Origin: Gemmatimonadales bacterium | GTDB lineage: Bacteria > Gemmatimonadota > Gemmatimonadetes > Gemmatimonadales > GWC2-71-9 | Reading direction: 5' to 3' | NCBI GenBank assembly: GCA_041613315.1 | Contig: JBFJHJ010000003.1 | Location: 50,026-114,025, forward strand | Length of the DNA: 64,000 bases | Shown: positions 57,292 to 62,866 of the stretch, in pieces | Layout of the letters: the number at the start of each line of letters is the position of its first letter | Position numbering within the stretch: position 1 is the first letter of the stretch | Notes under the pieces: model-generated | The model's input: only the letters and a program-made list of their open reading frames with translations | The model's database searches: none | Told to the model about the DNA's origin: nothing | Made by a program: the position numbers and the translations under genes

Positions 57292-59318
57292 GGGGACAGC
57301 CGCTCCGGCCGCTCGTGATGGAGCACCCAGAGCCCCGAGTTCATGTCGCTCATGAAGACGTTCCCCTTGAACAGCTGTGGCCCCCACGCCATGGGCGCAT
57401 TGGGACGCAGCGCCTGCTCCGTCGCCGCCGTGTAGTACCAACCGATCTGCCGTCCCTGGCGGTAGAGATCGCCACGGAGCTCACCGGAAACGTCCACGAT
57501 GCGGAGTCCGCCCTGATAATAGGCGATGTAGAGAACCCCATTCTCGACCCAGATATTGTGTGCGCCGGCTTCCGGCACGTCGAACTTGGCGACCTCCCTG
57601 GGATGCTCGATGTCGCCCACGTCGATCACGTGGATGTAGCCACGAGGACCGTTGACGCACGCCTCGCAGCCGAAGATCTCGTCGCCCACGAAGACGTAGT
57701 TCCCCTCGCGGTAGGCCGTGTGCGTGTTCCCGATGGGGTACGAGATGCGGGACACGAACGCCGGATGCACGGCGGTGCCGCCGTGTGTGCCGGCGCCGAT
57801 ATCGAGGATCACCAGTCCGTCATCCCAGTACGACAGGTACGCATACCGCCCATCGGCCCACACGTCGTGGAGCGACTTGTCCGTATCGCCGGGTCGTACC
57901 TCCCATCGTCCCGCGTGACGCGGCCGCCGCGGGTCGCTCAGATCCAGGATGTGCATGGCGCTGGTGCCGTCGTTCACGGCGTACACCACGTTGCCGTTGA
58001 TCCACGTGTTGTGGATGCCGGCCGTCAAGCTGTCGGTCAGCTCGGACAAGATCTTCGGGTGGGCCGGATCGGCGAGGTCGAGCACCACGATGCCGTTCCG
58101 GCGATTGCTGGCGCCTTCCCGCGTGATGATCGCCCAGCTCGCATCGCCGTTCACTTTGACGTCGTTCACCACCCGGCCGTCCACCACCACCGAGTCGGTG
58201 AGTCGGATGTTGGCCGGATCGGTTACGTCCCACGCATACATGCGGTTTCCACCACCCTCCGCGTGGGTCCCCGTGTACGCATAATCACGCCCGTCCTTGC
58301 CGGTAAACACCCACAGATCGCTCGTCGAGACCGAGTCGGGCCCGCGGCGGCCGATCAGGCGAACTGGCGTCGACGTGGGCCGCGCTGACACGGTCACCAG
58401 GGCTTCCGCGGCCAGGCCGCCCGCCGTCACCACGACCTTGTATCGCCCAGGATTCTCCGCCACGAACGCGCCGTCGGGAAACACCTGCGCACCGGCCGAG
58501 TCGAGGGGGGCGACCGCATAGGAGAGTGCGATGTCGGGGACAGCACGGCCGCGCGCGTCCAAGGCCTTGATCTCGAAATGCACCACGTCGCCCGTTCGCG
58601 CGGTCATGGACTTGGGGCTCACGTCCAGTTGACGCACGGGGTTCGCCCGCACGCGGAGCACGTAGGGCGTCGAGACGCCACCCTCGGTGGCGGCGGCGAG
58701 CCGCGCCGTGCCCACGCGTCCCAAGCTCACGACCCCACCGGGCGTCACCGTGGCCACCTGCGGATCGTCGCTCCGCCACGTGACGGCCGCGGTCGCGTGC
58801 GGCGTGTTCCGCGTGGTCATGGGCCGGGCCACCAGCGCGTAGGACGTGCCCACGTACGGCTGGTACGTGGGCTCGTCGATCGCGATCTTCGCCACCGGCC
58901 ACTCGCGCACGACCACCGCCGCCGAATCCGCCAGGCGCCACTCGAAGCCCGCCGAGTCACTCGGCACCTGCACGAAGATGCCGAACGCCGACTGCCCAGG
59001 CTGCACGCCCCACAGCAGATACGAATCGGCGATCGAGTCCTTGATCGACTGCAGATTGAACAGCCCCGATTGGCGCCCCAGACCGAAGCGGGCCCCGCGC
59101 ACGCGGTTCCCACGCTCGTCCAGCAGGGCGACCGTGAGGAGAATCGTATCGCCACGCTCGAGCGACACCGGAGTCGGACTGACGCGGGCGCCAGTGACCC
59201 GGCGGCCGGCTGCGAGCTCCTCGGCCGACCCTGGCGGGATCTGCGCGTGGAGGGGCGGCAAGATGCCGCCCAGCGCGGCGGCCGCAGCTAAGAGCGCAAC
59301 GAACGATCGTGTCGGCAT
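57288..59318 (-). CDS. secreted Ig-like (Big_2) plus LVIVD-repeat protein
   Basis: signal peptide, VTWRSDDP.VATV, repeats VLDLADP, ILDLSDP, LVILD, HVIDV, LRIVD. Confidence 0.85.
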   Translation of the reverse strand: MPTRSFVALLAAAAALGGILPPLHAQIPPGSAEELAAGRRVTGARVSPTPVSLERGDTILLTVALLDERGNRVRGARFGLGRQSGLFNLQSIKDSIADSYLLWGVQPGQSAFGIFVQVPSDSAGFEWRLADSAAVVVREWPVAKIAIDEPTYQPYVGTSYALVARPMTTRNTPHATAAVTWRSDDPQVATVTPGGVVSLGRVGTARLAAATEGGVSTPYVLRVRANPVRQLDVSPKSMTARTGDVVHFEIKALDARGRAVPDIALSYAVAPLDSAGAQVFPDGAFVAENPGRYKVVVTAGGLAAEALVTVSARPTSTPVRLIGRRGPDSVSTSDLWVFTGKDGRDYAYTGTHAEGGGNRMYAWDVTDPANIRLTDSVVVDGRVVNDVKVNGDASWAIITREGASNRRNGIVVLDLADPAHPKILSELTDSLTAGIHNTWINGNVVYAVNDGTSAMHILDLSDPRRPRHAGRWEVRPGDTDKSLHDVWADGRYAYLSYWDDGLVILDIGAGTHGGTAVHPAFVSRISYPIGNTHTAYREGNYVFVGDEIFGCEACVNGPRGYIHVIDVGDIEHPREVAKFDVPEAGAHNIWVENGVLYIAYYQGGLRIVDVSGELRGDLYRQGRQIGWYYTAATEQALRPNAPMAWGPQLFKGNVFMSDMNSGLWVLHHERPERLSP

Positions 59319-59510
59319 GGCAGGTCCTCTCACGGGACGGAGTGGCGAGCGATGAGCGGTTTAAGCTAACGGAACGGCGGCCGGTGGTGCAGGCCCCGGC
59401 GGCTGTCGGATCACCCGACGAGTGCGATACCCCGCGAGTTTCAAAACGATTCGCCCCCAGGCCCGAACGTTGACGGCTGCCTATGCCTTTACTACGTTGG
59501 CACTTACGTC

Positions 59511-60512
59511 ATGCACCTTCGACCGCCTCGGACCGCCGCACTCGCCGCCGCCCTGGTGGCCTTCGCGCCGCCGCTCGCGGCACAGGGGAGTGGCTTGGAT
59601 TTCACCTATGGGCGCTGGTGGCACGGCGACCCTGCGGTCGCGTACGGCGTGTCGCTCTACCGCCCGCTGCTGGGAATGCTCGACGTCGGATTCGGCCTCT
59701 CCTACCTCAACGACTCCCGCTCGCTCATCGACCGGTCGCAAACGGGGGTCGAGGTCTCGCTCGCGGCGGGACGGCGCCGCGCGGGACTCTACGGCGTGGC
59801 TTCCGCCGGTCTCGGCGTGACCCATGCGGACAGGGATCTCAGCGCGCTCTGGAGCGCGGGGGCCGGTTACGCGCTCCGTCCCGTGTCCTTCCTCACGGTG
59901 GGACTCGAAGCGCGCTACCGGGCGGAAGATCGATCCCTGCGTGGCTTCTGGCGACTCGAGTCCGACGACCGCGCGGGCGTCGTGCTCCAGGCCCGCGTCG
60001 CCGTCGGCTTCGGTTCACGGGGTGGGGGCGCGGTGCCAGCCACCGCGCGCGAGCCGCTGAACGCGCCGCCGCGACCGGCGATCGAGGACGCCGCGCTGCG
60101 CACCGGCGCCTCCGACGACGTCGCCGCGCTCGCCGCCGGCATCGTACAGACCGCGGTGGACGTCATGGGGACCCCCTACCGGTGGGGCGGAACGGGGGAG
60201 GACGGCTACGACTGCTCCGGGCTGATCCAGTACGCGTACCAGGAGCACGGGATCCTGCTCCCCCGCGTGAGCCGCGACCAGGCACGAATCGGCACGCGTG
60301 TCGAGCGCGACCTCGCGCAGCTGCGGCCGGGGGACATCCTCACGTTTTCCGCAGGCGGCGGCGGCGTGTCGCACGTCGGCCTGTACGTGGGTGACGGCAC
60401 GTTCATCCACAGCGCCTCGACGGGCGTCAAGCTCTCGAGCCTGACGACGACCGACCCGGAGAGCCGCTGGTGGCAGGCGCGGTGGGTGGGCGCGCGGCGG
60501 GTCCTGAATTGA
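59511..60512 (+). CDS. NlpC/P60 (C40) peptidase with N-terminal beta-rich domain
   Basis: GTPYRWGG, DCSGL, HVGLY, FIHS, GARRV; promoter TTGACG-17-TACGTT at 59470-59498. Confidence 0.9.
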   Translation: MHLRPPRTAALAAALVAFAPPLAAQGSGLDFTYGRWWHGDPAVAYGVSLYRPLLGMLDVGFGLSYLNDSRSLIDRSQTGVEVSLAAGRRRAGLYGVASAGLGVTHADRDLSALWSAGAGYALRPVSFLTVGLEARYRAEDRSLRGFWRLESDDRAGVVLQARVAVGFGSRGGGAVPATAREPLNAPPRPAIEDAALRTGASDDVAALAAGIVQTAVDVMGTPYRWGGTGEDGYDCSGLIQYAYQEHGILLPRVSRDQARIGTRVERDLAQLRPGDILTFSAGGGGVSHVGLYVGDGTFIHSASTGVKLSSLTTTDPESRWWQARWVGARRVLN

Positions 60513-60656
60513 GGCGGTGCCAAGGGGCACCCTGCGGCCCTGGGCCTGAGGGATCTGGAGTTTGGCAATGTCCCCTCGCCCTCCCGTCTGGGGCCACGTG
60601 ACGGGATCGTCGGGCGTAGCCACGGCCGTCGGCTAACGGACGACGGGTCACGCCCG

Positions 60657-61205
60657 ATGCCGTGGATCCGATGGATCGACGAGGACGATGCCGAGGGCCG
60701 CCTGAAGGCGCTGTACGCCCGATACGGCGGGCCGCGCGGCGTCGACCACATCCTCAAGATCCACGCGCTCAACCCCGAGTCCCTCGACCGTCACTACCGC
60801 TACTACGCACACCTCATGCGGGGGCCCTCCGGACTGTCCCAGGCGGAGCGCGAGCTCCTCGCCGTCGTCGTCTCCACCGTCAACGACTGCTTCTACTGAA
60901 TCCGCCATCACGGAGCGGGTCTCCGTCGGGCGCTGCGCGACGACGCCAAGTGGCGGGCCATCGTTGCGGACTACCACGCCGCGCCGCTCTCACCGCGGGA
61001 GCGGGCGCTCGTGGCATACGCCGAGAAGCTCACCCGCACACCGCAGGCGATGGCGCGCGCGGACATCACCGCACTTCGCAGCGCCGGCCTCGACGACGGC
61101 GAGATTCTCGACGCGTGCCAGATCATCGGCTACTACAACTTCGTGAACCGGTTGGCGGACGGGTTGGGTGTCGAGCTGGAGGACTCCTGGGACGAGCCGG
61201 GATGA
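60657..61205 (+). CDS. AhpD/CMD family peroxidase-related enzyme, probable selenoprotein (UGA at 60897-60899)
   Basis: ORFs 60657-60899 and 61011-61205 share a frame; reading through gives NDCFY-U-IRHHG...YAEKLT...YYNFVNRLADGLG, 182 aa. Confidence 0.85.
60910..60926 (+). promoter_or_regulatory. bacterial SECIS-like hairpin
   Basis: ACGGAG-CGGGT-CTCCGT; loop starts 17 nt after the UGA. Confidence 0.55.
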
Positions 61206-61490
61206 GGGGTGCGCCGTGAGGACCGCCATGGCCCGGTCGCGGCGTCTCGCGCTGGCCCTCGTCCGAGAATCGCGACCGCGATCGATCTCGAGAGCTCGGC
61301 GGAGCGGTGGTGCGCGTCGTGGGAGCAGCGATGGGCTGCGCGCGACCTCCTCTTGACGTCCGGATTTCGCGCACCAGTGTTGCGGGGAACGCTTTCGTGG
61401 ACCCTGAGGGATTGTAAGCCCTCCACGAGAGTGGCCTTCTCATCCTATTCCGACGCGCGTTCTCTTGCGCCGGGCCGCCGGCCAGGTGAC

Positions 61491-61961
61491 ATGAGTCCCC
61501 GAACGATCTCGCACGGACTTCTAATATTGGCTGGCCTCTCGCTGGTCGCTCAACTCGATGCCCAGACGCGCTACGCACGCCATCTCGGCCTCGAGCAGGG
61601 GCTGATCCCCGCGTTCGTCGCGAGCCTGGCGCAGGATCCCGACGGCCCCCTGTGGATCGGCAGCGCCGGTGGCCTCTACCGGTACGACGGTGTCGAGATG
61701 CGACGGTGGGCGCCCGAGATCCTCCGGAGCTGGGTGAGCGTGCTCGCGGTCGCGCCGGACGGCGGACTCATCGCGCTCGATGAGGATCAAGGCGGCGTGT
61801 TCGCCGTCGTGCCGGACGGTGTTCGTCCGGTGACGGGACCGGCGAACGAACGAGCCCACTCGTGTGCTGGCGTGCCCTCGGCACCGCACCCCGCTCACCG
61901 GCCAGGCGGCGCAAACGCGGTCTCGTCCACGTCCGTGCTGATCACCGCTCGGGGGAAATAG
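61491..61961 (+). pseudogene. truncated two-component regulator propeller (ligand-binding sensor) gene
   Basis: signal peptide, EQGL, LAQDPDG.LWIGS.GGLYRYDG; loses coherence after about 120 aa and runs into the convergent gene. Confidence 0.55.
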
Positions 61962-62662
61962 ATCCGGGCGTCGCCACTCAGGAAGGGTCGGTCGAGCGAG
62001 ACGAGGATCGGCCCGCGCCGCTCCCACTGCGTCCAGCGCGTTCGCGTGTTGGTCGTGGTGTCCGCCCGGTTGCGGAAGTGCTCCCACCATCCGATCAGAT
62101 GTGTCTCGGGATCGAGGTAGAGCTCGTAGCGGTTGTTGGGCGTGAGGCCCACGTTCTCGAAGGTGAGCTCGATCTGGTCCCACGGCTGGCCCGCCGCATC
62201 GGTGGCCGTGCCGCGCCAGAGCAGGTTGACGCCGGGATCGCGGCACTTGAACGGCATGATGAACCAGTAGCTGTCGTTGATGTAGATGGCGTACGCGCGC
62301 TCCAGCAGCGTCCGCGCGGAGTCGCCTTCCATGCGTTGGCCGTCGACCCACACTCGGCCCTCGCGCGTGGTGGTCGTGAACAGCGCCACCATCTGCTGTC
62401 CCTCGCCGAGCGGCGCCTCCAGCTTGTAACGGCCGGTCCACCGGTCCCACACGTGGCGACGCTCCACCGTGCGCCCGCCCCGCTCGATCGCCCACACGAA
62501 GTCGAAGAACCGGGCCGACTCCCACGCGGCCCGCCCCCCCATCGCCGCCACCATGAGCGACTCGGCGCGCAGCGCCAGCGGGTCGGCGTCGGTCTGGGCA
62601 GGGAGCGGTGACGGCGGCGCCACGAGGAGGGCCGCAGCGCAGGAGAGCAAGGAGAAGCGCAT
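61895..62662 (-). CDS. secreted hypothetical protein (LolA-like fold possible)
   Basis: signal peptide, AMGG.AAW, INDSYW..MPFK, GLTP..RY.LY.DP. Confidence 0.75.
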   Translation of the reverse strand: MRFSLLSCAAALLVAPPSPLPAQTDADPLALRAESLMVAAMGGRAAWESARFFDFVWAIERGGRTVERRHVWDRWTGRYKLEAPLGEGQQMVALFTTTTREGRVWVDGQRMEGDSARTLLERAYAIYINDSYWFIMPFKCRDPGVNLLWRGTATDAAGQPWDQIELTFENVGLTPNNRYELYLDPETHLIGWWEHFRNRADTTTNTRTRWTQWERRGPILVSLDRPFLSGDARIYFPRAVISTDVDETAFAPPGR

Positions 62663-62750
62663 GACTGGAGCCTCGTTGGGACAAGAGCGGACACCCGCGA
62701 CGGGCCGAATATCGGCCGAGACACAGGTGTCCGCCAGCCCTGGGGTGGCC

Positions 62751-62778
62751 TTGACATTGGCCGGACGCGGTCTATGTT
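62751..62778 (+). promoter_or_regulatory. sigma70-type promoter of groESL
   Basis: TTGACA-16 bp-TATGTT just upstream of CIRCE. Confidence 0.6.
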
Positions 62779-62787
62779 TCGCACACG

Positions 62788-62814
62788 TTAGCACTCTGAT
62801 TGGATGAGTGCTAA
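62788..62814. promoter_or_regulatory. CIRCE element (HrcA operator)
   Basis: perfect TTAGCACTC-N9-GAGTGCTAA. Confidence 0.97.
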
Positions 62815-62866
62815 TTACCTCTAACCAACACATTTTTAAGAACTTATGCTCATGGAGGCATAGGTT

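Follow-up and report, generated by a model that had tools for sequence, protein, structure and literature searches.

The question raised by this locus is whether an in-frame TGA within an AhpD-like gene is a stop codon or a codon for selenocysteine (Sec). The window, i.e. the whole stretch of 64,000 nucleotides that was analysed, carries this gene on the forward strand. In the standard-code ORF list it is split into two pieces, 60657-60899 (80 aa) and 61011-61205 (64 aa). Once codon 81 is read through, the frame beginning with the ATG at 60657 stays open to the TGA at 61203-61205. The codons at 60888-60911 (TGC TTC TAC TGA ATC CGC CAT CAC) read C-F-Y-[TGA]-I-R-H-H and belong to the wider motif N-x-C-F-Y-[TGA]-x-x-H-H. 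The features of the gene are the following.

60657..61205, forward strand: AhpD-like (TIGR01926 / Pfam CMD) gene of 182 residues with one internal UGA (open frame, profile matches, and a model with pLDDT 97.1 and TM 0.89 to 6K40).
60897..60899, forward strand: TGA within the frame (codon 81), predicted to encode the selenocysteine that takes the second position of CxxU (TGA in 29/33 alignable loci, Cys in 95/120 listed homologues).
60888..60911, forward strand: active-site motif with C78 (60888-60890), Y80 (60894-60896), U81 and H85 (60909-60911) (alignment of 109 proteins; PA0269 spacing).
60852..60854, forward strand: E66, located 12 residues ahead of the first Cys and equivalent to the glutamate of the proton relay (invariant in the 109 aligned proteins and in 33/33 alignable loci).

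Searching with the TIGR01926 profile supports a single gene. The two pieces taken separately score 60 and 49.6 bits, both below the cut-off of 81.8, whereas the read-through protein reaches 160.3 bits and covers positions 1-175 of the 178 in the model. The Pfam CMD match (residues 43-123 of the read-through protein) spans the TGA break. The initial annotation had joined the two ORFs to one frame of 182 aa with an internal UGA, which agrees with the reading of the frame and the full-length match, and its assignment to the AhpD/CMD family is confirmed by the two profiles together with the fold described below. Its word 'peroxidase' is, as far as the sequence matches go, a family label. The start at 60657 is backed by nine of eleven close relatives, which have an MPWI or MAWI start 80-82 codons before their own TGA. 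Scanning 59300-61600 gave no sigma-70 promoter site and one terminator-like site, which lies on the minus strand upstream of the gene and is within chance expectation. No RNA run is among the public sequencing runs listed for this DNA, so these runs have no bearing on expression.

Codon 81 is without a listed difference in the public contigs of four sequencing runs. Three of these runs, however, may themselves have supplied this DNA, and in the fourth the coverage extends just 20 bases beyond the codon on one side, so that a sequencing error is argued against mainly by the conservation in relatives. The public contigs and the window disagree at two places, 61303 and 61485; the differences are a substitution, seen in 3 runs, and an inserted base, seen in 4, so that minor assembly errors are possible 3' of the AhpD-like gene.

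A match to the AhpD-like protein was found in 35 of 61 genomes, namely this genome and 60 relatives. For the comparison of codon 81 we took 35 loci, of which 30 came from the 61-genome search, two are paralogues from the own genome, one is from a further genome and two are from metagenome contigs (in the labels used here G000 is this genome, C stands for contig and L for locus). Thirty-three of them could be aligned over codon 81, leaving out L038, where the match stops short of this codon, and L051, which gave no BLAST match; read directly, L051 has TGA at the same CxxU site. The column shows TGA in 29 of the 33 alignable loci and TGC or TGT in the other four. The TGA loci comprise the gene itself, one own paralogue, 24 related genomes, one further genome and the two metagenome contigs, and their identity to this protein goes from 68% down to about 26%. 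The four Cys loci are distant (27-34% identity). In the 27 TGA loci from other genomes or contigs the frame continues for 94-149 open codons past the TGA. Pattern scans of large collections contributed one locus from genomes and two from metagenomes, using patterns that reach only close relatives. Among the best 120 of 480 homologues the residue at this site is Cys in 95 (94 CxxC, one DxxC), Trp in 16, Arg in three, Ser in three and Gly in one, and two are unaligned. The UGA thus sits exactly at the second Cys, as had been noticed from the letters alone, and the tblastn-type check named at that time came out as expected, with relatives either keeping TGA or having Cys.

The genome (2.63 Mb, 70% G+C, 83% complete) encodes the machinery needed for Sec. 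Profile searches placed selA on contig C12 (521.9 bits, curated cut-off 267.9), selB on C4 (328.7 bits, cut-off 242.25) and selD on C2 (370.7 bits, cut-off 125), and the tRNA-Sec gene (selC) lies on C24 (score 77.2, cut-off 47) with the anticodon UCA. The selD gene has an in-frame TGA of its own, in a UxxK motif. The implied presence of selABCD elsewhere in the genome was therefore correct for all four genes, each above its curated cut-off.

Studying the co-occurrence of TGA forms and sel genes is a test with little power, because selA is above cut-off in 54 of the 61 genomes, and the counts treat kin as separate though they are not independent. Among the 24 relatives that bear the TGA, selA exceeds its cut-off in 22. 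The other two are G030, a fragmented genome of 550 contigs in which selB and selD are present, and G054 (85% complete), which has selD and tRNA-Sec and, at the end of a contig, a piece resembling selB. Three near-complete genomes (G049, G057, G059) have no selA, selD, tRNA-Sec or above-cut-off selB, and these harbour only Cys forms or no match. G021 and G040, which also have no selA, have no TGA-bearing match; the search that found none of the other sel genes covers G049, G057 and G059.

A feature absent from the initial annotation is a hairpin directly behind the UGA.

60910..60926, forward strand: predicted bacterial SECIS hairpin, 6-bp stem of 60910-60915 with 60921-60926, 5-nt loop with G at loop position 2, the loop beginning 16 nt after the UGA.

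The bacterial SECIS model given in the legend of Fig. 2 in PMC13188914 allows a loop of 3-9 nt and a stem of 4-16 bp, with a G among the first two loop nucleotides and a spacing of 16-37 nt from the UGA, and the hairpin agrees with this geometry (6 bp, 5 nt, G at position 2, 16 nt). Under a rule written after the folds were seen, which asks for a stem of 6 bp or more and a G among the first two loop nucleotides, 16-37 nt past the codon, such a hairpin follows the TGA in 29 of 29 loci, the Cys codon in none of only four and distant control loci, and 14% of the other codons of these loci (644 of 4620). By subgroup the loop lies 16-17, 20 or 24 nt from the UGA, so that it falls in different codons. 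In the 11 close genes, which were picked by the HHG motif, synonymous positions appear frozen: codons 87, 89 and 90 have identical nucleotides in 10/10, 11/11 and 11/11, compared with 0 of 38 comparable 4- or 6-fold codons elsewhere that reach 90%. The folding energy after the UGA was not better than that of shuffles in five windows (z 0.2-0.9), and the hairpin is part of the minimum-energy fold in one of these five; in the 48-nt window, too, another fold is preferred. Two-sided compensatory changes were looked for in the 11 close genes and none was found, five of the six pairs being invariant and one changing from A-U to G-U in four genes. A swap of G-C to C-G in the stem is seen only in two distant genes, L034 and L036.

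Including 60657..61205, the genome has three UGA-bearing AhpD-like paralogues. In the paralogue at G000:C28:39994-40569 (forward strand, L050) the CxxU site likewise has TGA, and a hairpin follows 24 nt downstream; the one at G000:C16:21849-22391 (reverse strand, L051/L070) also has TGA there, with a hairpin 20 nt downstream. In a relative (L059, G050:C109:7817-8969) two AhpD-like genes share a strand, a Cys form (CxYC) and, directly 3' of it, a TGA form.

Upstream of the AhpD-like gene, on the same strand and 144 nt away, an NlpC/P60 gene is found (59511-60512, forward strand), and groES-groEL begin 1.66 kb downstream. The order NlpC/P60, AhpD-like, groES-groEL is kept in four of the seven loci from other genomes or contigs that were viewed with wider flanks, namely L052, L055, L056 and L057, where the gap to groES is roughly 0.15-2.3 kb; it is absent from view in L054 (2 kb flanks only), L058 and L059. 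One syntenic locus of another genome is 60% identical. Because the four loci are close kin, the conserved neighbourhood may be plain inherited gene order. The NlpC/P60 protein has a signal-peptide-like start followed by a long N-terminal region without a Pfam match. Between the AhpD-like gene and groES a 156-codon ORF (61491-61961, forward strand) with a signal-peptide-like start looks truncated and overlaps the end of an ORF on the opposite strand (61895-62833). Neither of the two has a Pfam or NCBIfam match or was found in the four syntenic relatives; the former presumably resembles the N-terminal propeller repeats of hybrid sensor kinases.

To consider what the protein might do we used an AlphaFold model, built from 109 sequences with Cys in place of Sec, which has helices at residues 62-75 and 79-93. 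The best match in the PDB is 6K40, an AhpD-like protein of D. radiodurans (TM 0.89, 40% identity), followed in this order by 3C1L, 2OYO, 2PFX, 2PRR, PA0269, S. pneumoniae AhpD, Bmp8 and Sestrin2. Alignment and model both contain the set of a helix-turn-helix relay, E66, C78, Y80, U81 and H85; in the 109 aligned proteins Y80 and H85 are invariant and C78 is conserved in at least 90%. The second Cys is the attacking residue in M. tuberculosis AhpD. Sestrin2 is described as using the first Cys position and not the second (PMC4674687), so that here either U81 or C78 may attack the peroxide. According to PMC3141380, the relay consists of Glu36/Cys48/Tyr50/Cys51/His55 in P. aeruginosa PA0269 and of Glu118/Cys130/His132/Cys133/His137 in M. 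tuberculosis AhpD, and PA0269 reduces H2O2, although weakly. PMC8945050 describes a D. radiodurans ahpD-like mutant as H2O2-sensitive and its complementation as dependent on the CxxC.

Taken together, the AhpD-like gene is intact, with UGA at codon 81 very likely read as Sec; the recoding proposed in the initial annotation is supported by the sel genes, the conserved UGA and the SECIS-type hairpin. That the UGA is Sec and the protein in addition has a redox role in peroxide defence we regard as likely. Following the known bacterial pathway, SelD would make selenophosphate, SelA would convert Ser-tRNA-Sec to Sec-tRNA-Sec, and SelB would bind the G-containing loop 16 nt downstream and deliver Sec at the UGA. 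By homology, U81 and C78 would then alternate between a reduced form and a selenenyl-sulfide, aided by the E66/H85/Y80 relay, and the reduced pair might act on hydroperoxides directly or feed electrons to a peroxiredoxin. The electron donor could be a lipoyl protein, as for M. tuberculosis AhpD.

Sec could also be inserted into a protein that is mainly a disulfide reductase or adaptor, or that performs other CxxC chemistry such as reductive dehalogenation, and does not remove peroxide. An adaptor would resemble M. tuberculosis AhpD, which hands electrons from lipoyl proteins to AhpC according to PMC12028322 and PMC8945050, and five AhpC/TSA-family matches are present in the genome, one of which carries an in-frame TGA and is separated by about 2.4 kb from an AhpD-like paralogue. 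However, no peroxiredoxin gene adjoins the AhpD-like gene, and the adaptor role overlaps with that of an oxidoreductase in peroxide defence. As to dehalogenation, the fold matches the debrominase Bmp8 (TM 0.75-0.78), but Bmp8 is only 15-16% identical compared with 40% for the D. radiodurans protein; a literature search on Bmp8 together with AhpD, with most subscription papers outside its coverage, found nothing. We consider these functions unlikely as the main one. A further idea is that an expanded AhpD-like group in this bacterial family normally occurs in the Sec form, with three UGA paralogues in this genome and a SECIS register of its own in each subgroup, and that this copy, rather than simply scavenging peroxide, is a selenol-based reductase for protein repair with a link to the stress response of the chaperonin; this we hold to be improbable.

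If the UGA were read as Trp, Cys or Gly, by a changed code or by read-through independent of Sec, the homologues with Trp (16), Arg (3), Ser (3) and Gly (1) at the site among the best 120 of 480 would find an explanation. A changed genetic code was rejected, because TGA is otherwise the commonest stop: of the 1136 stop-to-stop frames with 500 codons or more, a set that includes non-genes, 689 end in TGA, and the AhpD-like gene itself is terminated by it as well. Moreover, the tRNA-Sec is the only tRNA with a UCA anticodon found in the genome. The Trp and Gly homologues were placed in a quick tree only (136 rows, site masked, arbitrary root, leaving out TGA loci below 37% identity and rows unaligned at the site). 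There they sit among the TGA genes and none falls inside a Cys-only branch of 74 rows; some Cys rows lie among the TGA and Trp rows, from which no direction of change is drawn. All 16 Trp proteins come from contigs shorter than 2 kb. Because of this and of the grouping with TGA genes, the 16 Trp homologues and the one with Gly (rows that include P0002, P0005-P0008, P0010, P0013 and P0016) are probably TGA codons translated under code 4 or 25, and a reading of the UGA as another amino acid is very improbable. That the TGA is a true stop, by nonsense mutation, sequencing error or a naturally split gene, is hardly credible: the GTG at 61011 could start a separate 64-aa ORF and the assembly departs from public contigs at the two downstream positions named above, but termination here would interrupt the helix of the CxxC and leave out H85, sequence conservation persists in both halves of the gene, the codon is without a listed difference in the four runs, and the same TGA with an open frame beyond it recurs in the 27 loci of other genomes and contigs; a pseudogene was rejected as well.

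With Sec as the preferred reading of codon 81, the gene is by its sequence a member of the AhpD-like selenoprotein family (TIGR01926 / COG2128, CxxU), which has been catalogued since 2005. In that year a Sargasso Sea study listed 27 sequences of an 'AhpD-like protein' with CxxU (PMC1088965), the GOS survey counted 299 sequences of 'AhpD-like 1' (PMC2398784), and BSepDB takes the family as its browsing example (PMC13326102). Table 1 of a 2026 review has TIGR01926 with CxxU and one Sec under 'Predicted with high confidence' (PMC13188914), so that this family, although old and abundant in marine metagenomes, is in that table still only a predicted one. Our search for experimental selenium labelling of AhpD-like selenoproteins, with most subscription papers outside its coverage, found none. 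Titles on Gemmatimonad selenoproteins did not include the AhpD-like family; supplements may list members from Gemmatimonadota. The gene shares with the family the TIGR01926 match above cut-off, CxxU with one Sec, a SECIS-type hairpin just after the UGA, widespread Cys homologues and a marine source. It differs in the host lineage (likely Gemmatimonadota), in NlpC/P60 upstream and groES-groEL downstream, and in having three UGA paralogues in one genome, none of which is a difference of kind.

The D. radiodurans protein 6K40, which we infer from the PDB title and PMC8945050 to be DR1765, and its relatives 2OYO, 3C1L, 2PFX and 2PRR have the full-length all-helical fold, the motif N-x-C-x-Y-C-x-x-x-H and the upstream Glu in common with the protein studied here, but carry Cys at both CxxC positions. 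M. tuberculosis AhpD (TIGR00777) and PA0269 share the spacing of the five relay residues. AhpD proper was rejected as the family of this gene (19.4 bits, cut-off 191.95): the motif is here in the middle of the chain and not near the C-terminus, and no ahpC adjoins the gene. Also rejected were NF041238 (AhpD_rel_CFYUT; 63.1 bits, cut-off 175, about 357 residues compared with 182 aa), NF053654 (YciW-related; 22.6 bits, cut-off 310) and NF041047 (GSU3128; 13 bits, cut-off 110). These three have a CxxU in an AhpD-type helix as well, and the local C-F-Y-U is that in the name of NF041238.

For annotation this means a correction, as standard callers break the gene into two fragments, neither of which reaches the family cut-off, and Trp seems to be entered at the site in some databases. 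Furthermore, this member is small and well-folding, with Cys forms among its close relatives, which makes it a convenient test case for the presence and the benefit of Sec, which is equally true of many other members.

Other genes with an in-frame UGA are also found in this genome. An AhpC/TSA-family gene at G000:C16:24805-25176 (reverse strand) has its TGA in TxxU and lies about 2.4 kb from the AhpD-like paralogue on C16, on the same strand; neighbouring Prx-like and AhpD-like selenoproteins have been noted in the GOS survey (PMC2398784). A genome-wide UGA screen gave 79 candidates among 53,243 TGAs, many of them false, and it is incomplete because selD and the peroxiredoxin on C16 were missed. 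Of 11 candidates that were scanned, two are adjacent in-frame genes (L31/prfA, and a copper ATPase with its neighbour), four are without support and five fit selenoprotein-type families. Likely selenoproteins of the genome are a thioredoxin-like/NHL-repeat protein with UxxC (C3:44058, L062), a SelW/Rdx protein with CxxU (C18:35918, L063), the formate dehydrogenase alpha subunit (C10:60823, L065), a MerB-family protein (C2:2217, L069) and SelD (C2:62887, L009).
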